From NCBI RefSeq assembly GCF_988242995.1, contig NZ_OZ547043.1: a stretch of 64,000 nt of DNA; one strand, written 5' to 3'. Below the pieces are notes generated by a model. The model did not search any database. It had not been told where the DNA came from and saw only the letters and a list, made by a program, of their open reading frames with translations. A program made the translations under genes and the position numbers. Positions 40,694 through 52,270 of the stretch are shown one piece after another (the stretch's first letter is position 1; each line of letters begins with the position of its first letter).

Positions 40694-41731
40694 ATGTTTT
40701 CCGCATTGCGCCACCGTACCGCTGCCCTGGCGCTCGGCGTATGCTTTATTCTCCCCGTACACGCCTCGTCACCTAAACCTGGCGATTTTGCTAATACTCA
40801 GGCACGACATATTGCTACTTTCTTTCCGGGACGCATGACCGGAACTCCTGCAGAAATGTTATCTGCCGATTATATTCGCCAACAGTTTCAGCAAATGGGT
40901 TATCGCAGTGATATTCGGACATTTAATAGTCGGTATATTTATACCGCCCGCGATAATCGCAAGAGCTGGCATAACGTGACGGGAAGTACGGTGATTGCCG
41001 CTCATGAAGGCAAAGCGCCGCAGCAGATCATCATTATGGCGCATCTGGATACATACGCCCCGCTGAGCGATGCTGACGCCGATGCCAATCTCGGCGGGCT
41101 GACGTTACAAGGAATGGATGATAACGCCGCAGGTTTAGGTGTCATGCTGGAACTGGCAGAACGCCTGAAAAATACGCCTACCGAGTATGGTATTCGATTT
41201 GTGGCGACCAGTGGTGAAGAGGAAGGGAAATTAGGTGCTGAGAATTTACTCAAGCGGATGAGTGACACCGAAAAGAAAAATACGCTGCTGGTGATTAATC
41301 TCGATAACTTAATTGTTGGCGATAAATTGTATTTCAACAGCGGTGTAAAAACCCCTGAAGCAGTAAGGAAATTAACGCGCGACAGGGCGCTGGCAATTGC
41401 GCGTAGTCATGGAATTGCCGCAACGACCAATCCGGGTTTGAATAAAAATTATCCGAAGGGTACTGGCTGTTGTAATGACGCCGAAGTTTTCGACAAAGCC
41501 GGTATTGCCGTACTTTCGGTAGAAGCAACAAATTGGAATCTTGGGAATAAGGATGGTTATCAGCAACGCGCAAAAACAGCTGCATTCCCTGCGGGAAATA
41601 GCTGGCATGACGTAAGACTGGATAATCAACAACATATTGATAAGGCACTTCCTGGAAGAATAGAACGTCGCTGCCGTGACGTTATGCGGATAATGCTACC
41701 TCTGGTGAAGGAGTTGGCGAAGGCGTCTTGA
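40694..41731 (+). CDS. iap: Alkaline phosphatase isozyme conversion aminopeptidase (M28 family)
   Basis: 345-aa ORF with signal peptide; position adjacent to CRISPR array as in E. coli. Confidence 0.92.
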   Translation: MFSALRHRTAALALGVCFILPVHASSPKPGDFANTQARHIATFFPGRMTGTPAEMLSADYIRQQFQQMGYRSDIRTFNSRYIYTARDNRKSWHNVTGSTVIAAHEGKAPQQIIIMAHLDTYAPLSDADADANLGGLTLQGMDDNAAGLGVMLELAERLKNTPTEYGIRFVATSGEEEGKLGAENLLKRMSDTEKKNTLLVINLDNLIVGDKLYFNSGVKTPEAVRKLTRDRALAIARSHGIAATTNPGLNKNYPKGTGCCNDAEVFDKAGIAVLSVEATNWNLGNKDGYQQRAKTAAFPAGNSWHDVRLDNQQHIDKALPGRIERRCRDVMRIMLPLVKELAKAS

Positions 41732-41812: not shown

Positions 41813-43000
41813 CGGTTTATCCCCGCTGACGCGGGGAACACGCTTTTCCCCACGCGTCCAGATCTTCGACTGGCGGTTTATCCCCGCTGGCGCGGGGAAC
41901 ACTCATTAAATTGTTTTTCCCGATCCCAGCTCTGCGGTTTATCCCCGCTGGCGCGGGGAACACCTGGAGCGCAGAAAGTTTGATATCGAAAATGCCGGTT
42001 TATCCCCGCTGGCGCGGGGAACACAGTTAACAACCCGCGCCGAACAAGCCCGACAACGGTTTATCCCCGCTGGCGCGGGGAACACCAGGTTCGTAAAGGT
42101 GAACACGGCACGACGGCCGGTTTATCCCCGCTGGCGCGGGGAACACGCGTCGCCATTCTATTAGCTTTTCCTCATCACCGGTTTATCCCCGCTGGCGCGG
42201 GGAACACCCGACAATCTCCGCCTCCAGTCGGTCGACCTGCGGTTTATCCCCGCTGGCGCGGGGAACACTGTGCCCGACTGCGTGCCGCGTCGAGCGCCTG
42301 CGGTTTATCCCCGCTGGCGCGGGGAACACTTCGCCGCCATCATCCTGTGGTGCCAGTTGACCGGTTTATCCCCGCTGGCGCGGGGAACACATACCGCAGC
42401 AAATTACGGTTCCAGAAACGCGCGGTTTATCCCCGCTGGCGCGGGGAACACTGACACGTTAAACGGTGCGTTGTCGTCGCTGTCGGTTTATCCCCGCTGG
42501 CGCGGGGAACACCCTGCCGCCCCCTTTAGCCCATATGGGGGCGGCGGTTTATCCCCGCTGGCGCGGGGAACACTTCAACATTACGAAACGGGATCACGCC
42601 GCTGACGGTTTATCCCCGCTGGCGCGGGGAACACCGGCTCCGCGTCGACATAAAAGTCCTCGGGATCGGTTTATCCCCGCTGGCGCGGGGAACACATATT
42701 TCGCCCCGTCACGCTGAATCAGCCAGCCGGTTTATCCCCGCTGGCGCGGGGAACACTCGCTTTTAAAGCGCCGGAGGAAAGTAAGCTCCGGTTTATCCCC
42801 GCTGGCGCGGGGAACACTAGCATAAATTACCCGATCAGATCGCGGACATCGGTTTATCCCCGCTGGCGCGGGGAACACTCGATCAAAAATTTACAACCAA
42901 AGGCTTCAACCGGTTTATCCCCGCTGGCGCGGGGAACACTCCCCGGTATCAGAAATAATTCCCTGCTCGATCGGTTTATCCCCGCTGGCGCGGGGAACAC
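41813..43000 (-). CRISPR. Type I-E CRISPR array: 20 repeats of 29 bp, 19 spacers of 32 bp, period 61 bp; transcribed from the cas2-proximal leader
   Basis: Repeat CGGTTTATCCCCGCTGGCGCGGGGAACAC at 41813, 41874, ... 42972; leader-distal repeat is degenerate (CTGACG instead of CTGGCG). Confidence 0.98.
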
Positions 43001-43096
43001 ACTAAGCATACATAACTGTTTTTAAACAAATTTATTCCGCATCAACAATCTACCAACTAAATTAAAACATTTCCTTATTTTTAAAGAACAGATAAC
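43001..43096 (-). promoter_or_regulatory. CRISPR leader (AT-rich, between cas2 and first repeat)
   Basis: AT-rich 96-bp spacer between cas2 stop and leader-proximal repeat. Confidence 0.8.
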
Positions 43097-44306
<1,210 letters not shown>

Positions 44307-44310
<4 letters not shown>

Positions 44311-44957
44311 GCCTCTGCTCCGGGTTTGATCAGCATCAGACCACAGCCGAACGCGCGGCTTTTGCCATACCCCTGACTGAGACGTTGCAGAAATAACCCG
44401 GGATCGGTGACCGTAAGCATCCCCGTATAATCCACGCTACTGAACTGGATCAGTTGCCGGGAGTTTTCCCGCCACAGTTGCTGTTGTCGGTAGGCATCAA
44501 CCGAGGTATCCAGCAGTGTAAAACCGCTTCTCTCCCCCTGCGCTGCCAGCCAGTCCAGCGCCGCCTGTTGTTGATGCAACCAGACATCACTTCCTTCCGC
44601 CTGCCCCCTCACCTGCCGTTTCGCCTCCATCAGCAGATCGTGGCGCTTGCCCGCTTTACAGATTGTTGGATTCGCCCGCAGGTTGAAACAAAGTTGTTGT
44701 CCGGTACGCAGCTCGGGCACAAATGACCGGCATTCGATGGTGAACGTTTCACTTTCCGCCGGGCGTTCCTGCGACAGGACAAAAAAGCGAAACGCCCCCT
44801 GGAGTTCTTCCCGACGATAAAGAAATTGCCTTTCTTTGCCGCCAGGAAAAAGATCCCACAGCCACTGATGCATTACATATTCACCGCGATCCACCAAATG
44901 CAGCAACTGCGCAGGCGAAAGCTGGCCGGTATGTAAGGTTATTCTTGAGAGGTACAT
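44307..44957 (-). CDS. cas6e: Cas6e (CasE/Cse3) crRNA endoribonuclease
   Basis: ORF 44307..45095; start taken at ATG 44957 (MYLSRITLHTGQ...) behind AAGGAGG; position between cas5 and cas1. Confidence 0.85.
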
Positions 44958-45685
44958 GGTTCCTCCTTGCTGAGCCACGGCCCCTGATTGATGGTGCGTT
45001 CCCCAAACAGCCACTGCTGACGATTTAAAGGAACATCCCGGCGACGTAATATTTTGCTCGCGACCAGGCCGTCGTGTTCCCCTTCCCACCAGCATTCATC
45101 CTGAAGTTTCGGGAGTGAGACTTTCAGTTCGCGGAAACTATCCTGATACTGTTGGTATGCGTTACGTAAGACATCAGACGCGTTGCCTTCGAGCAGTAAC
45201 GGCGCAAGTGGTAACGCCAGCGGATGACTTTTTCGCCCCAGATAAAGCGGAAAAACCGGATGACGTAAACCGTCCTGCAACTGTTCAAGCCTGTAAGGCG
45301 CATCGGGGGTTGTTGCCACCGCCACCATCCACCAGGCATCGGTGTAGTAGTCGCGCCGGGAGATAATCGCGCTCAGAAGTTCAGGGGCGCTCAACTCTTC
45401 GCGACGGCTGAAATAACGCGCTTTACGCACCTCTTTTGGCATCTGGACCGTGTGATAATCCCGTGCCCAGCGCGGGTTACGGCTGGCGCAAACCACCAGT
45501 GAATAGTGGCGGTTAAACGCGTTTAATCGTTCGGTATCATCACGCCGAATCCCTACCCCGGCAGCCAGCAGCCCCAGCAATGCTGAGCGCGAAGGCAGTT
45601 CATGGGTATGACGCACTTCGCCGGGGGCATCGACGCCCCAGGATGCCATTGGCCCATGAAGCTGAAAAATCAAATATTGGCTCAT
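44939..45685 (-). CDS. cas5: Cas5e (CasD) Cascade subunit
   Basis: 248-aa ORF MSQYLIFQLHGPMASWG..., typical Cas5e N-terminus; operon position. Confidence 0.85.
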   Translation of the reverse strand: MSQYLIFQLHGPMASWGVDAPGEVRHTHELPSRSALLGLLAAGVGIRRDDTERLNAFNRHYSLVVCASRNPRWARDYHTVQMPKEVRKARYFSRREELSAPELLSAIISRRDYYTDAWWMVAVATTPDAPYRLEQLQDGLRHPVFPLYLGRKSHPLALPLAPLLLEGNASDVLRNAYQQYQDSFRELKVSLPKLQDECWWEGEHDGLVASKILRRRDVPLNRQQWLFGERTINQGPWLSKEEPCTSQE

Positions 45686-45695
45686 TAGCCGCCCC

Positions 45696-46751
45696 TTACG
45701 CGCAGATAAAGTCCAGCACGTCCTTCATGCTTCCCTGTTTGTTCATCACGTCAAAGCTTGCGCATTCGGTCTTCTGTTCATAGACCGTATTCATATTTTC
45801 GCGAAGCGTTGTAATACGCTGCACCGCCACATCTAACTGCCGGGTGCCATTAATGGGTTCATAGAAAGCCGCCGCCAGAGAGCGTGGTTGTTCAGTGCCT
45901 TTTTCTGCCAGCGCCCAGGAGGCGTAGGCACGGCTGGCAAAGCTGTTCTGTTTGCCGGTTGGGGAGACTTTAAGTGCGGCTTCTGTAAAGGCGCGCAAGG
46001 TCTGATTAGCTAACGCTTCGTCACCGCCGAGGTTTTCGACCAGCAGATCTTTATCGATGCAGATATAGGTGTAGAACAGCGCAGAACCGAATCCGGTTTC
46101 ACCAAGATGCCCGGCACCGGCATCTTCAGAAGCCTGGCGCAAATCATCAACGGCGGTGAAAAAATCATCTTCGACAATCGTTTCACTGACACCAAATGCA
46201 TGCGCGACCTGGCAGGCGGCTTCAACATTAAATTCGGGTTTATTCGCCAGCATACGACCAAACATAGCGATATCTACCGCCATGCGATCTTTACGTAACA
46301 ACGCGAGATCTTCCTCTTTTGGCGCGCGCTTTTCTTCGGCCAGTTGATGGGCCAGCGCTTTTACGGCGTCAAATTCTGCCGGGCTGATATGGACTAGCTG
46401 TTCAGTTTCGGCGTTAGTGAGCGGATCTTTTGGTTTTTTGTCGTTTTTAGCTTTCCCAAGATAATCCGCAATTTTTGCCGCCCATTCGATGGCTTTTTTC
46501 TCTTCGATGCCTTTCTCAATCAGGATAGTTGCCGCCTCACGCGCAATACGCCCACTGCGAATACCAATATGGCCCGCCAGTGCCTGTTCAAAAAGTGCAG
46601 AAGTGCGCCACGCACGTTTCAGACTTTGTGAGGAAACGCGCAGACGCGTTGCTCCACCCAGTACCACAGTTTTTGGCGCACCGGTGTCATCACGGTTAAG
46701 GTTGGCAGCAGGGTAAGCGGTTAACAAATGAAGCTGAATAAATGTCGTCAT
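45696..46751 (-). CDS. cas7: Cas7e (CasC) Cascade backbone subunit
   Basis: 351-aa ORF; operon position between cse2 and cas5. Confidence 0.85.
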   Translation of the reverse strand: MTTFIQLHLLTAYPAANLNRDDTGAPKTVVLGGATRLRVSSQSLKRAWRTSALFEQALAGHIGIRSGRIAREAATILIEKGIEEKKAIEWAAKIADYLGKAKNDKKPKDPLTNAETEQLVHISPAEFDAVKALAHQLAEEKRAPKEEDLALLRKDRMAVDIAMFGRMLANKPEFNVEAACQVAHAFGVSETIVEDDFFTAVDDLRQASEDAGAGHLGETGFGSALFYTYICIDKDLLVENLGGDEALANQTLRAFTEAALKVSPTGKQNSFASRAYASWALAEKGTEQPRSLAAAFYEPINGTRQLDVAVQRITTLRENMNTVYEQKTECASFDVMNKQGSMKDVLDFICA

Positions 46752-46765
46752 GAGATAGTCCTTTA

Positions 46766-47302
46766 TTAATTTTGTTCGTTATCGGCGTCGCCAGCCTGGT
46801 AATATTCCAGCGCCCAGCGGATACGGATAAATTCTGTTGGCCGCTGCTGGCGGCGGTGATGATTGAGCAGGTCGTCGCTCTCCTGGCACCAGCGGAAAAT
46901 ATCGTCTGCCAAAGAGATAAGATTGACGGAACCATTTAATAATTTGACCGCGCGACGTAACTGACGCAGTAAATCATCAGGCGTTTTTACTGCCGACAGG
47001 CGAGTAAAACGCCCCTCCGACATTACCGCCGCCAGCTGCGCGGCAAAAGGCTGCCGTTCATCAATAGCTTTAACATTGGCGCTAACTGCGGCGACCAGCG
47101 CCAGTGCGGTAAAACGCCACTCTTGTGCTTCAATTTTCCACAAAGTGTGGGTCTGCATCAGCAGAGAACGAAACCCTTCTGACAGACAAACATCATTAAC
47201 CGTTGTGCTACGCCGCAGACTGGCACGATTGCCGCGTTTTTCCTGCAACTCTTCGTGCCATTTACGCAGCGTGGCTTTGTGCTCCTCTTTTACAATACTC
47301 AT
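46766..47302 (-). CDS. cse2: Cse2 (CasB) Cascade small subunit
   Basis: 178-aa ORF; operon position; 4-bp overlap with cse1 stop. Confidence 0.8.
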   Translation of the reverse strand: MSIVKEEHKATLRKWHEELQEKRGNRASLRRSTTVNDVCLSEGFRSLLMQTHTLWKIEAQEWRFTALALVAAVSANVKAIDERQPFAAQLAAVMSEGRFTRLSAVKTPDDLLRQLRRAVKLLNGSVNLISLADDIFRWCQESDDLLNHHRRQQRPTEFIRIRWALEYYQAGDADNEQN

Positions 47303-48867
47303 TCAGCAGCCTCCTGCTTTTTCTCCCTGGCGGCTTTAGCATTTTGCTTCTCCGCCGATGTTGTAAAATATTTCTTGCGCGCGGTCATGACGCGTTTCAA
47401 ATCAACGGGCTCATATGGATTGGTGAAGACACGCTCGTCAAAATCCTGACGCGCGAATAACCAAATTTCCTTTTGCCATTTGCTGAGTAATTCATCCGCA
47501 TCCTGACCTTCTTCAATGTGGCGCACTAACCTCAGGAAGCGATGCTGAGTTTTGTTCCAGAAGTCGATATCCACAAAACTGAAATCACCCCGTGCACCTT
47601 TTGGATCGGAGAACCACGCTTCTTTCAATGCACTCCGTAACAGACTCAGAATCCGTGAAGCCGTTTGCGCAGCCAGCCGCAGCTTCGGTATCTGGCCTTC
47701 TTTTTTATCGAGCAGCAGCGGAAAATGGTGTTCGTACCAACAGCGCGCTTTCATGTTGTCAAAATCATAACCAAATCCCCACAGGCCCACTTTTGCCTGC
47801 TTGAGACTGCTGGCATTAAAGAGTTTCACCACCAGCGCGGGAAGTTCCGTATTGTTTTCTGATTTACCCGTTTCGATAAGGCCTAACCAGTCGCGCCAGA
47901 TTAAACCGCCTGGTTGTGGTTTGACCGAGTAAAACTCGCCGCCCTCTTTAAGGGGTACACGGTAAGGCGTTAAGGGATGCTGCCACATGGCATAATTCGC
48001 GCCGTAATTTTTGGTCGTCATCAGGCTCAGGAGCGCGTCGTTCTGCTCGCCGCAAATATCGCAGTTGCCGACTGTCGTGGTATTAAAATCAATACGAATA
48101 CGCCGCGGCATTCCCCAGTACGCCTGGAGTTTATTAACCTGATCATCGGTTACCACCGCACCGGCCAGTTCGCTGGTACGCGTCGGGCCAAGCCAGGGGA
48201 AAACCAGATCGTCAAATTTTTTGGGTAGCGGTAAGTCGGCTTCGTCCTGCGGCATCACATTGAGCCACAGTTTGCGCCACAAGGGCGTTTGTTGATTGCC
48301 CTGATATTCCTGTAATTCAATCAGAGTGGTCATCGGCCCACCGCCGCGTAAACCGGTGCGGTAGCCTTTACCACCTGACGGCGCATTTAACTGTAGGGAG
48401 AACAGAGCTAACGCAGAACAATGTGGGCAAAGGTATTCCGTTACACCACGCTTGATAAAGTGGTCTTTATTAAACTTCGTTGTTTGAGCGCCGGGAATCT
48501 CAGGCAGTAGCGAAGCGACCTGAACTTTATCTCCTGTGAGCGCCTCGAAATCCTGCATAAATGAAGGGGAATCTGGCCCAAACTGGAAAGCGTGTTCTAA
48601 GGACAGCAATGCTTCCCGTAGCTTTTCAGATTCCAGTCCGTCTTCCCAGATATCATCCCAACGACGATGATCTTTTGGCGCAAAGCTGGTTTGTAGTAGC
48701 CCCAGCAAAAACTGCCATGCCGCTCCCTGGAGATCTGCCCGTGGCGCAGCAATATCGACAACATTTTCATCCGCCAGATCGACAGGCGCCAGTTTGCCTG
48801 TCGTTCCGTCTTTATAACGAACGGGCAACCACGGGGTTGTCAGAAGTGAAAACGAGTTCATACGCAT
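47299..48867 (-). CDS. cse1: Cse1 (CasA) Cascade large subunit
   Basis: 522-aa ORF first downstream of cas3; strongly divergent from the K-12 CasA I recall. Confidence 0.8.
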   Translation of the reverse strand: MRMNSFSLLTTPWLPVRYKDGTTGKLAPVDLADENVVDIAAPRADLQGAAWQFLLGLLQTSFAPKDHRRWDDIWEDGLESEKLREALLSLEHAFQFGPDSPSFMQDFEALTGDKVQVASLLPEIPGAQTTKFNKDHFIKRGVTEYLCPHCSALALFSLQLNAPSGGKGYRTGLRGGGPMTTLIELQEYQGNQQTPLWRKLWLNVMPQDEADLPLPKKFDDLVFPWLGPTRTSELAGAVVTDDQVNKLQAYWGMPRRIRIDFNTTTVGNCDICGEQNDALLSLMTTKNYGANYAMWQHPLTPYRVPLKEGGEFYSVKPQPGGLIWRDWLGLIETGKSENNTELPALVVKLFNASSLKQAKVGLWGFGYDFDNMKARCWYEHHFPLLLDKKEGQIPKLRLAAQTASRILSLLRSALKEAWFSDPKGARGDFSFVDIDFWNKTQHRFLRLVRHIEEGQDADELLSKWQKEIWLFARQDFDERVFTNPYEPVDLKRVMTARKKYFTTSAEKQNAKAAREKKQEAAE

Positions 48868-48958
48868 CCTCTCGTAAAAAAGACCATCCTAGGTCGGTTG
48901 TCCATCATTCCATCCTTTTCGGTGTATCAACTATTCAGAGAGCCCTGTCGCAGGCATC

Positions 48959-51658
48959 TCAACCAACCTTGCCAGTCAATCCTTCCATAGCCGAATACCC
49001 GCAACTTTCGTCATCGGTAACTAAAATCACGTTTGCCATCTCCGGATCTTTCCGCTGTTCAATGCACCACTGCCTGAACGCTTCCCCTTCCAGTAAAGAA
49101 AACTCATCCCGATGTTTTTTCCACCAGCTTCGACGCACTCTGACAACGCTCATTTCCCATGCGTGAGCACCGTTGGCATAAGGCTTCACCACACTGGCAA
49201 TACAGGTAGCCAGCCACAGGGAAACAGACTCCTCCGCCAGACGTGTCGACAGCTTTTCCGGAAGGTAATCGTTGATATTGGCGGCATAGCCAGGCCTGAA
49301 GTTCAGCACAAACTTTTTAGCCATTGCGCGATCGCAGTAATATTTGCCCACTTGCTCCTGCTCGCTGCGGGCAAATCCTTCCGGCATTACCACGTCCTCA
49401 CCGTAGACTGATTCAATAAGAAGGCGGGCTGCGTGTGGCATTTGAATAGCGCCTTGCTCACGCAGTACACGCTGCGTCAGCCAGATTCGTCCATGATCGG
49501 GATAGACATATGCACTGTTACGCATGGCACTGCCGAACCATTCGTCACCTGGAGCGTCGTCCCAGACGGGGGCCAGAATCAGCAATTCAGGAGGGGAACG
49601 CTCGTCTTTTCCGTCACGCTTTAACTGACCATTAATATCGCGGATATGCCGCTGTAATCGCCCCGCTCGCTGGATCAGCAAATCAACAGGGGCCAGGTCG
49701 GAAATCATTTCGTCCATATCGCAATCAACGCTCGACTCTAAGACCTGAGTACAAATGAGGACTTTTCCGGCACGCTGTGAGCTATCTTCTTTACCGAAGC
49801 GTGCCAGCGTTTCCGTTTCAATTCGCTGGCGATCGCTAAAAGCAAAGCGGCTATGAAACAGAGAAAGGCTGGAAGCAGGAATGACGCCGCGGGCAAGCAA
49901 CTGACGATAAACCTTAATAGCGTCATCGACAGAATTCCGGATCCAGGCGATGCATTTCCCCTGACTTACTGCCGATTCGATACGCGCAATACATTCTTGT
50001 TCGCTATGAAGCCAACCCACGCTCACGCTACGCTCAACGTCTTTGCGCGTCGCTACCCGGTGTGAATGCACATCGGATTTCGTAACGTGCGTCAGCCAGG
50101 GGTAATCATCCTTTTCCAGGAACGGAGCTTCTTGCTGGCCCTCTGTACCACGCGCAAAGGCAGCAACGAGTTTGTCGCACTGCTGTTGAGATAACGTGGC
50201 AGAAAGCAAAATGACGCTGTTTCCGCCACGCGCCTGCCGCTCGATCAGCCCTTCAAGAATGCATGACATGTAAGCGTCACAGGCATGGATCTCATCAGCC
50301 AGCAGGATTTTGTTACTCAGTCCCAGAAGCCGCAGATTATTATGTTTGAACGGCATCACAGCCATCATCGCCTGATCCAGCGTGCCGACGCCAATTTCAG
50401 CCAGTAGCGCCTTCTTGTTACTGTCGGCAAACCAGGCCGCACATCCCTGACTGAACGTTTGTTCATCCGGTTCTTCTGACCCGACTAAATCACCGGACCA
50501 GAGTGATTCATTAAAGCGGTCCATTAATGTTCGGGCACTGTGTGCCAGCACCAGGCTGGGGCGGGACTCTGGCGAATAGAAAGCAAGCCAGGTTTTGACC
50601 AGTCGATCGTACATGGCATTGGCCGTTGCCATTGTTGGCAGGCCAAAAAACAAACCCTGCGCTTTACCCGCAGCCATCAACCTGTGCGCCAGGATAAGCG
50701 CCGCTTCCGTTTTACCTGCGCCAGTCACATCTTCCAGAATAAATAACTGTGGCCCTGGCTGGCTGATATCCAGATCCAGCACCTTTTGCTGTAACGGTGT
50801 CGGATTCTCAATAAAAGGAAACAGCGTATTAATTCCGGTGAAAGGCGCGACTTTTGCTTTTAGAGGAAAGACGGTTAAGGCGTTTTGAGCCTGAACTAAA
50901 GTTTTCTGCCAGTAACCTTTATTATCCATTGGGTGTGCGACGCGTGGAAAAAATCGCGTTGACGAACCCGTCCAGTCTGCGAGCACGACGGTTGCAGAGA
51001 TATACCAGGAAAGGTGTTTTATAAGTTCAATGCCCTCATCATCATCCCAGAATGCGGGGATCTCTATGAGCGGAAACAGTGGTTTGATTTCAAGAAGAAA
51101 ATCTCGCGCGGCAGCTTTGTCTTCAGGCAGAAAATTATCCAGTTCATCAATACGGTCAGGCGGGCGACCATGATGCCCGGTAGTTATGGGCATCCACATC
51201 GCTATTACACGTGTAAGTTTGCGGGGAGAGAGTGAAGAGGAAGGAAGTAACTCCTGACATTCACTTAAATAATGATGCCACAACCAGTAGCCCAGCGTTG
51301 AATGAGAGATTTTTTCGTAATTTTTTCTAGCACCTTCCGGAACCCTGAGTTTCGGGTGCAGGTAAAGTTGCTGAAATGAGCGGGCAAATTTACCAGTATC
51401 GTGCCAGCACAACAACCAGGCGAAAAATTGAGCCGCCTGTTCCTTGTCAGAAATCTCTAATTGACGAAAATAGTCAGCCAGTCCGAAGCAATTGCTTTTA
51501 ACCATTAAATAGCCCATCGCGGCTACATCCAGCGAATGCCAGCAAAGAAGGTGATAGTCGTCGCCCCCGTCTTTCTCGCCGCGTCGGGTTTTTCCCCAGA
51601 AATCAAAAAAAGTCACAATATTTTTATCCTTCAGTAAACTTAAAGGATATTTACGCAT
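48959..51658 (-). CDS. cas3: Cas3 nuclease/helicase (HD domain + SF2 helicase)
   Basis: 899-aa ORF; N-terminal HD region (HSLDVA, WHDTGK), helicase motifs GAGKTEAA and DEIH. Confidence 0.93.
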   Translation of the reverse strand: MRKYPLSLLKDKNIVTFFDFWGKTRRGEKDGGDDYHLLCWHSLDVAAMGYLMVKSNCFGLADYFRQLEISDKEQAAQFFAWLLCWHDTGKFARSFQQLYLHPKLRVPEGARKNYEKISHSTLGYWLWHHYLSECQELLPSSSLSPRKLTRVIAMWMPITTGHHGRPPDRIDELDNFLPEDKAAARDFLLEIKPLFPLIEIPAFWDDDEGIELIKHLSWYISATVVLADWTGSSTRFFPRVAHPMDNKGYWQKTLVQAQNALTVFPLKAKVAPFTGINTLFPFIENPTPLQQKVLDLDISQPGPQLFILEDVTGAGKTEAALILAHRLMAAGKAQGLFFGLPTMATANAMYDRLVKTWLAFYSPESRPSLVLAHSARTLMDRFNESLWSGDLVGSEEPDEQTFSQGCAAWFADSNKKALLAEIGVGTLDQAMMAVMPFKHNNLRLLGLSNKILLADEIHACDAYMSCILEGLIERQARGGNSVILLSATLSQQQCDKLVAAFARGTEGQQEAPFLEKDDYPWLTHVTKSDVHSHRVATRKDVERSVSVGWLHSEQECIARIESAVSQGKCIAWIRNSVDDAIKVYRQLLARGVIPASSLSLFHSRFAFSDRQRIETETLARFGKEDSSQRAGKVLICTQVLESSVDCDMDEMISDLAPVDLLIQRAGRLQRHIRDINGQLKRDGKDERSPPELLILAPVWDDAPGDEWFGSAMRNSAYVYPDHGRIWLTQRVLREQGAIQMPHAARLLIESVYGEDVVMPEGFARSEQEQVGKYYCDRAMAKKFVLNFRPGYAANINDYLPEKLSTRLAEESVSLWLATCIASVVKPYANGAHAWEMSVVRVRRSWWKKHRDEFSLLEGEAFRQWCIEQRKDPEMANVILVTDDESCGYSAMEGLTGKVG

Positions 51659-51852: not shown

Positions 51853-52005
51853 CTACTTCTTCGATTCGTAAGCGAGAACTGCCTTAAACTCCATACCACG
51901 TTCTCTGATACTCAACTCACACAACGAGTCGCCTACCATCAGCGTGAATCCCAGTACTGTACAACACAGTACGATGATTGCCACAAGGGCATATTTTGTC
52001 AGCAT
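51853..52005 (-). CDS. Hok/Gef-family type I toxin (small membrane peptide, HokE-like)
   Basis: 50-codon ORF absent from ORF track: [50 protein letters not shown]; GGGAGG RBS; TM helix plus conserved Cys; resembles Hok peptides from memory. Confidence 0.65.
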
Positions 52006-52270
52006 GTCTTGCCTCCCTGCAAAGAAGAGACTAACATTCGAATTGCTTAGGTTCGAACGCTGGCCTCAGGTTGATAGAAATATCGCCTGGGGCTTTTGTC
52101 CATCTGGAACCTCGCGAATGCTTAACGCCAGACAGCCTCAAGCACCCAACGCCATTCTATACTTGATAATTCTTCCAGCGGCGTTCACGTTTAAAATCAG
52201 GAATGCTGCTCGCAAAATAAAAACGCCCCCATCTTTTCAGACAGAGACGTTTATTAAGCGGTACGATATT

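Follow-up and report, generated by a model that had tools for sequence, protein, structure and literature searches.

A nineteen-spacer type I-E CRISPR array with a non-K-12 repeat and spacers matching P2-like prophages

Introduction

A 64-kb stretch of DNA (hereafter the window) carries a CRISPR array whose repeat differs from that of Escherichia coli K-12, and the locus therefore raises the question of which CRISPR-Cas system the array belongs to, what its spacers are directed against and whether they record recent activity. The original prediction, made from the sequence alone, described a type I-E array with a variant repeat, left its targets and any self-targeting open, and pointed to one nearly palindromic spacer. 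The array is examined here together with its leader, cas genes, flanks and protospacers.

Results

Array geometry and orientation

A mismatch scan of the whole window finds the plus-strand repeat CGGTTTATCCCCGCTGGCGCGGGGAACAC in exactly 20 copies, with starts at 41813 + 61n (n = 0 to 19) and the last copy ending at 43000. This confirms the predicted geometry of 20 repeats of 29 bp and 19 spacers of 32 bp with a strict 61-bp period, and 20 copies of a 29-mer in perfect register make a chance origin of the array impossible. The rest of the 64-kb window holds no further repeat copy or second array at up to seven mismatches on either strand. The spacers are all 32 bp and mutually unrelated, and because they break the similarity between units, Tandem Repeats Finder detects the array as fragments only. 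In an Rfam scan all CRISPR repeat families stay below threshold. The array and its end are placed as follows.

41813-43000, minus strand: CRISPR array, CRISPR2.1 (CRISPR-I) locus, with the crRNA-sense repeat GTGTTCCCCGCGCCAGCGGGGATAAACCG
41813-41841, minus strand: terminal (anchor) repeat, C13 to T in crRNA sense, in the hairpin loop

All repeats but one (19 of 20) are identical. The exception is the iap-side copy, in which the degeneracy foreseen for the leader-distal repeat amounts to a single G to A change at 41829. The substitution leaves the fold of the terminal repeat unchanged, at -15.2 kcal/mol, and the same variant closes the arrays of other E. coli (loci L001, L003, L010 and L017-L019). 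A related observation is that the loop variant (GTGTTCCCCGCGTCAGCGGGG...) occupies most repeats in the arrays of some strains (GMF054, which is L017, and L005), while in the window it is confined to the terminal repeat; the L005 array also mixes GAG- and GTG-type repeats. The repeat itself folds into a 7-bp GC stem with a tetraloop, the Cas6e-type hairpin, at -15.1 to -15.2 kcal/mol (z = -3.2), which together with its 29-bp length and the spacer length matches the type I-E form of 29-bp repeats with such a hairpin and 32-33-nt spacers.

Minus-strand transcription of the array is indicated by where the leader and cas2 lie, by the degenerate repeat at the opposite end, and by a PAM that is found 5' of the protospacers in this sense. 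Spacers are accordingly numbered in crRNA sense from S01 (42940-42971), which adjoins the leader, to S19 (41842-41873).

Leader, cas operon and chromosomal locus

The genes on both sides of the array are given with their NCBIfam or Rfam scores.

40694-41731, plus strand: iap, conserved flank, annotated as iap in every E. coli match
43001-43096, minus strand: leader of the L1 (leader-A) type, 96 bp, 75% A+T
43097-43390, minus strand: cas2e, 97 aa (TIGR01873, 127.9 bits, cut-off 33)
43387-44310, minus strand: cas1e, 307 aa (TIGR03638, 380.9 bits, cut-off 215.6)
44307-44957, minus strand: cas6e, 216 aa (TIGR01907, 290.9 bits)
44939-45685, minus strand: cas5e, 248 aa (TIGR01868, 158.2 bits)
45696-46751, minus strand: cas7e, 351 aa (TIGR01869, 448.1 bits)
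46766-47302, minus strand: cse2 (casB), 178 aa (TIGR02548, 103.6 bits)
47299-48867, minus strand: cse1 (casA), 522-aa open reading frame (TIGR02547, 609.1 bits)
48959-51658, minus strand: cas3, 899 aa, HD nuclease and helicase (TIGR01587, 218.2 bits; TIGR01596, 84 bits)
51853-52147, minus strand: hok/sok toxin-antitoxin locus between cas3 and cysH (Rfam sok at 51990-52147, 111.7 bits)

The eight genes form the contiguous minus-strand run cas3-cse1-cse2-cas7-cas5-cas6e-cas1-cas2 (43097-51658) that characterizes type I-E, and all eight proteins are full-length and score above the NCBIfam cut-offs, which bears out the type I-E call. At loci fetched via the identical Cas1, gene callers give the cse1 product as 520 aa. 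An A+T-rich leader between cas2 and the first repeat, with a degenerate repeat at the distal end, is likewise the type I-E arrangement. Arrays that share spacers with the window (loci L010 and L017-L019) have exactly this leader, and in L001, L003 and L007 it is one base different; as expected of I-E1, nine other arrays with the 97/307/216-aa Cas set have a leader that is identical or one base off. A simple scan of the leader finds no strong sigma-70 consensus promoter.

The gene order places cysDNC and iap on one side of the array and, past cas3, hok/sok followed by cysHIJ on the other. The sok element is the sole Rfam match, and a Hok-like reading frame of 50 aa, from about 52005 to 51853, is read from the sequence beside it. 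Its location between cas3 and cysH is that of I-E1 loci, hok/sok being reported with every arrangement except the K-12-type (E2). Identity of the flanks to E. coli loci is 98-98.6%, and the host locus is taken from its sequence to be E. coli iap-cysH. A host other than E. coli was considered when a first search gave about 90% identity and was rejected, as that value is due to the non-matching spacers. The exact Iap and Cas1 proteins are listed in 32,927 and 22,948 blocks, respectively, of the public assembly collection.

The array as a whole is absent from all 5,426 complete RefSeq E. coli genomes, where the best alignments are about 76% identical, a value that reflects the repeats only. A search for the same array via exact Iap and Cas1 gives a matching cas2-iap spacing in none of the 18 loci examined.

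Spacer targets

The targets, which the original prediction had left for a database search, are now known for 11 of the 19 spacers: these match phages or plasmids, mostly P2-like prophages, with one spacer directed against a plasmid gene. A random 32-mer would be expected to give 4e-6 matches at up to six mismatches in a 47-kb locus, so that each spacer match is far beyond chance. The best matches are listed with their mismatches and the three bases 5' of the protospacer.

42391-42910, minus strand: leader-proximal block of S02, S03, S05, S07, S09 and S10, against one P2-like prophage family, with S04, S06 and S08 interspersed
S02: P2-like prophage of strain N1420, 0 mismatches, AAG
S03: IMG/VR relative of the N1420 phage, 0 mismatches (3 in N1420), ATG
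S05: N1420 prophage, 0 mismatches, ACG
S07: related prophage of strain LZSFT34, 0 mismatches, ATG
S09: LZSFT34 prophage, 0 mismatches, ATG
S10: replication-endonuclease gene of the same P2-like family, 5-6 mismatches, ACG
S04: a different, second myovirus prophage, STEC384, 0 mismatches, AAG
S19: STEC384 prophage, 547 bp from the S04 site on the same strand, 4 mismatches, ATG
S14: IMG/VR contig UViG_2529293142_000021, a third phage, 0 mismatches, ATG
S18: UViG_2529293142_000021, 3.2 kb from the S14 site on the same strand, 1 mismatch, ATG
42086-42117, minus strand: S15, exact match to an ArdC-like (zincin metallopeptidase/DUF1738) gene of about 330 enterobacterial plasmids, ATG

Of the six spacers against the P2-like family, S09 lies on one phage strand and the other five on the opposite strand, a bias that is not significant alone (estimated chance probability about 0.2). 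S10 has no exact match in IMG/VR. At five mismatches, S18 finds further matches in a phage group and in about 430 E. coli prophages. A search of E. coli genomes and phage records for a more complete copy of phage C (L037) yields only relatives of at most 80% identity. Four S15 plasmid records were inspected: pK245 and another Klebsiella pneumoniae plasmid had been typed as IncR, and an 84-kb plasmid of Salmonella Typhi and a plasmid of E. coli as IncY. Plasmid targets of the other spacers were considered and rejected, the matches being at chance level and to unrelated taxa only. As read from these matches, the memory is directed mainly against temperate P2-like myoviruses, with one spacer, S15, giving the chromosome a memory against an ArdC-like gene carried by some 330 plasmids of enterobacteria.

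Eight spacers (S01, S06, S08, S11, S12, S13, S16 and S17) have no protospacer in the collections searched. Phages, plasmids, complete E. coli genomes and IMG/VR are without a match for S01, S06, S08 and S17; JGI metagenomes and GTDB genomes are likewise negative for S01 and S08, and IMG/VR for S11. As to self-targeting, within the 64-kb window no spacer has a target at up to nine mismatches.

One unmatched spacer had been singled out for its symmetry.

42513-42544, minus strand: S08, GC-rich hairpin spacer

It was described as nearly palindromic around CATATG, which is roughly right only: the position holds and the spacer contains a perfect 10-bp palindrome, CCCATATGGG (42530-42539), but its most stable fold is not this palindrome: at -17.5 kcal/mol, CCGCCCCC and GGGGGCGG pair as an 8-bp GC stem that closes a 12-nt loop. 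A fold as stable as this is reached by nine of 200 composition-matched shuffles, which makes S08 only mildly unusual for its composition.

PAM

Across the 11 best matches, the trinucleotide immediately 5' of the protospacer in crRNA sense, where type I-E systems have their PAM, is ATG in seven, AAG in two and ACG in two. The AAG/ATG motif suggested for inspection is thus found as AWG in nine of 11 (binomial P = 1.5e-12 against a background of 2/64), and its position 5' of the protospacers confirms the direction of transcription. The exceptions are S05, without mismatches, and S10, with five, both at ACG. Read in the acquisition sense, the motif is the CWT of I-E1, with CAT (ATG) predominant. 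The ratio of seven ATG to two AAG is similar to that of published leader-A arrays, 34 CAT and 9 CTT among 55 (PMC3737337), and the tally is an independent reproduction of the ATG-biased AWG preference reported for I-E1. An ATG signal in natural E. coli spacers has been attributed to Cas1-Cas2 variants distinct from those of K-12 in a K-12 PAM survey whose main text makes no mention of ACG (PMC6568314).

The N1420 prophage (L015) has ACG next to the S03, S05 and S07 protospacer sites where a relative (among L016 and L025) has ATG; at the S10 site both prophages have ACG, and L025 also has ACG at S05 and S07. Escape from I-E1 spacers through changes in the PAM could account for the ACG sites, as could tolerance of non-canonical PAMs or coincidence.

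Spacers shared with other arrays

Spacers S11-S16 and S19 recur elsewhere with their relative order kept and with different losses, in GMF054, CFSAN018748, K_EC180 and a segment of plasmid pIOMTU792. The trailer spacers are present in 190 of the 5,426 complete E. coli genomes and lie in CRISPR arrays in all matches listed. S02-S09, which are eight of the ten leader-side spacers, and S17 and S18 are not found in other arrays of these complete genomes. By this comparison the trailer half (S11-S16 and S19) is inherited memory common to other E. coli and the leader half is lineage-specific; a conserved trailer with a lineage-specific leader end is the usual pattern. Spacer order can place the strain among the S11-S16/S19 array families, which include the record 'strain ST38' and several pig ETEC strains.

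The remaining leader-side spacers have counterparts in an array family that is otherwise unrelated: S10 occurs exactly in E24377A-type arrays (L020) and S01 with two mismatches in NS-NP030 (L021), each at a different position from that in the window. This suggests either that the same protospacers were captured repeatedly by different lineages or that arrays have recombined. Earlier work has inferred that CRISPR arrays of E. coli recombine (PMC3903273), but the neighbouring spacers in the E24377A and NS-NP030 arrays are entirely different, and the S01 counterpart is two bases off, which capture from a variant phage fits better than spacer transfer. Sharing of S10 and S01 through recombination, rather than independent acquisition, is accordingly considered improbable.

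Three observations concern the related arrays. The oldest spacer of L010 and L017 (CCAGCGAAGGACTTGCTCGTGTGGTTAAAGCC or CCGGCGAAGG...) is similar to S19 (CCAGTCGAAGATCTGGACGCGTGGGGAAAAGC), though shifted by one base and different at many positions, and may have been captured at the homologous site in a diverged phage. The 293-kb IncHI2 plasmid pIOMTU792 (NZ_LC542972.1, 240571-252847; L010) carries a chromosomal iap-CRISPR-cas2...cse2 segment beside ISEcp1-blaCTX-M-15; four spacers of the window (S11, S12, S13 and S16) recur in the array of this plasmid. A contig of GCA_024429475.1 (L029) has a 420-aa DDE transposase gene and a beta-lactamase gene directly after cas2; insertion or capture involving this resistance unit may recur at the CRISPR locus.

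Discussion

Activity and spacer acquisition

The structure, genes, family, targets and PAM of the locus are read here directly, and the steps by which it would work are taken from established type I-E biology. The A+T-rich leader would drive minus-strand transcription of the array, and Cas6e would cleave every repeat at the 3' base of its hairpin, releasing 61-nt crRNAs composed of an 8-nt AUAAACCG handle, the 32-nt spacer and a 21-nt hairpin handle. Cascade loaded with crRNA would bind spacer-matching DNA with a 5'-AWG PAM and then recruit Cas3 for degradation, and Cas1-Cas2 would insert new spacers at the leader end.

Present-day activity of the system may be proposed by this analogy. Recent use is argued by the intact genes, the 19 identical repeats and the lineage-specific leader spacers, and caution is advised by the published view that E. 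coli I-E systems are for the most part silent in the laboratory, with arrays that are stable over years (PMC10910852). The array could be a genuine I-E1 array whose cas operon is silenced by H-NS and whose leftover spacers give no current protection. Such a fossil would be consistent with the old and widely shared trailer spacers, with imperfect matches (5-6 mismatches for S10, 4 for S19 and 1-5 for S18), with a leader lacking a strong promoter consensus, and with the stability and laboratory inactivity just cited. It fits poorly, however, with eight intact, full-length cas genes, with the identity of all 19 non-terminal repeats, with at least seven spacers that still have perfect matches, and with the absence of S02-S09 from every other array of the 5,426 complete genomes, which points to acquisition within the lineage; on balance a silent remnant is rather unlikely.

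Three patterns among the protospacers fit primed adaptation, namely the concentration of six spacers on one phage family, the pairing of S19 with S04 and the pairing of S14 with S18. Domination of the leader half by one phage family is what primed adaptation would produce. The same cluster could also arise from repeated independent (naive) acquisitions from common P2-like prophages, and this is given a chance slightly short of even. The perfect matches are spread over relatives (S02 and S05 in N1420, S07 and S09 in LZSFT34, S03 in an IMG/VR contig), ATG dominates over AAG, S09 lies on the opposite strand, and S10 stands alone in the otherwise unrelated E24377A array family, all of which is compatible with naive capture. 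Set against this are the match of six of the ten newest spacers to one 33-kb element, five of them on one strand, the proximity of the S04 site to the imperfect site of S19 (547 bp, same strand), and the S14 and S18 sites 3.2 kb apart, again on the same strand.

A more specific reading, and one less likely than not, is that primed adaptation and counter-evolution of the phages have left a natural record in this array of a wild E. coli I-E1 system. It draws on the older, mismatched S10 (5-6 mismatches), which is on the same phage strand as the later and perfect S02, S03, S05 and S07; on the mismatched S19 (4), with the later, perfect S04 site 547 bp away on the same phage strand; and on the ACG of the targeted prophage lineage versus the ATG of its relatives at the S03, S05 and S07 sites. 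This record of priming, if true, would mean that the supposedly silent E. coli system has in this lineage been active in nature.

Comparison with known type I-E systems

The iap-proximal array of K-12, read directly from NC_000913.3, has 13 repeats and 12 spacers with the repeat GAGTTCCCCGCGCCAGCGGGGATAAACCG (GAGTTCC...), or ...GGGGAACTC on the other strand. The K-12 repeat end is therefore different from that of the window, as the original prediction has it, and the array is the longer of the two, as stated (19 versus 12 spacers). The description of the repeat as a variant holds only in the sense that it differs from K-12; it is not unusual, being the published majority form, CRISPR-A (PMC3737337). 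Two E. coli forms, each with its own leader, have been named CRISPR-A (...AACAC) and CRISPR-T (...AACTC) by Diez-Villasenor et al. 2013 (PMC3737337), and the repeat scan finds the former in the window. The I-E1 cas set with leader L1 is that of most E. coli, with K-12 in the minor I-E2 group (Almendros et al. 2014, PMC3903273), and a 2024 study terms the exact 29-mer of the window the "E. coli-conserved" repeat (PMC10910852). An attempt to take the prevalence of CRISPR-A from megablast hit counts was rejected, because K-12-type repeats have a 27-nt word in common with the query and may be seeded by chance, which makes the counts unclean.

The difference between the two repeats is a single base outside the Cas6e hairpin, at position 2, where K-12 has GAG and the window GTG. 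It goes together with the protein set: among the fetched loci, GTG-type repeats pair with Cas2/Cas1/Cas6e of 97/307/216 aa, and mainly GAG-type arrays with 94/305/199 aa. The system of the window shares subtype, gene order, locus, hairpin and 8-nt handle with the I-E2 system of K-12 (CRISPR-T, L2 leader), and its Cas1 and Cas2 are 83-85% identical to those of K-12, whereas Cascade and Cas3 are 21-35% identical and Cse2 gives no significant alignment. The leader is very different, and K-12 prefers AAG alone (PMC3737337). The window also falls outside the K-12-type models, Cse1 scoring 103.9 against NF007247 (cut-off 576) and Cas3 scoring 420 against NF007248 (cut-off 569), so that repeat, leader and protein models all separate it from I-E2/CRISPR-T. 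The terminal iap-proximal repeat of K-12 MG1655 is GTGTTCCCCGCATCAGCGGGGATAAACCG, of CRISPR-A type, and the other 12 are GAG-type, in agreement with the published idea that the K-12 cas/leader module displaced an older one of which the anchor repeat remains.

An identical 29-bp repeat is found by exact-string search in the type I-E CRISPR1 and CRISPR2 arrays of Salmonella enterica, where it is quoted in several typing papers. The host differs, since the flanks of the window are E. coli-like and its exact Iap and Cas1 occur in assemblies with the E. coli cysDNC-iap-cas arrangement.

The leader shared with CRISPR-A arrays, and the split in identity to K-12 between Cas1/Cas2 and Cascade/Cas3, as published (PMC3903273, PMC3737337), assign the system to I-E1. 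The array is almost certainly the chromosomal CRISPR2.1 (CRISPR-I) array of an E. coli with the common, non-K-12 I-E1 system, a CRISPR-A repeat and an L1 leader, and no finding speaks against this identification. It is of a kind already known, an ordinary E. coli I-E1 CRISPR2.1 array with a typical spacer content of mostly prophages and one plasmid. Its value lies mainly in annotation, as a clean example, with the operon intact and the spacer history legible, of the majority I-E1 system, which has been studied less than that of K-12. Agreement with the published I-E1 systems (PMC3737337, PMC3903273) extends over the repeat, the leader, the Cas sizes (97/307/216/248/351/178/520-522/899 aa), the iap-cysH site with hok/sok, the degenerate anchor repeat, the 32-nt spacers and an AWG (CWT) PAM with ATG above AAG; the structure shows no differences, and the spacer set alone sets this array apart.
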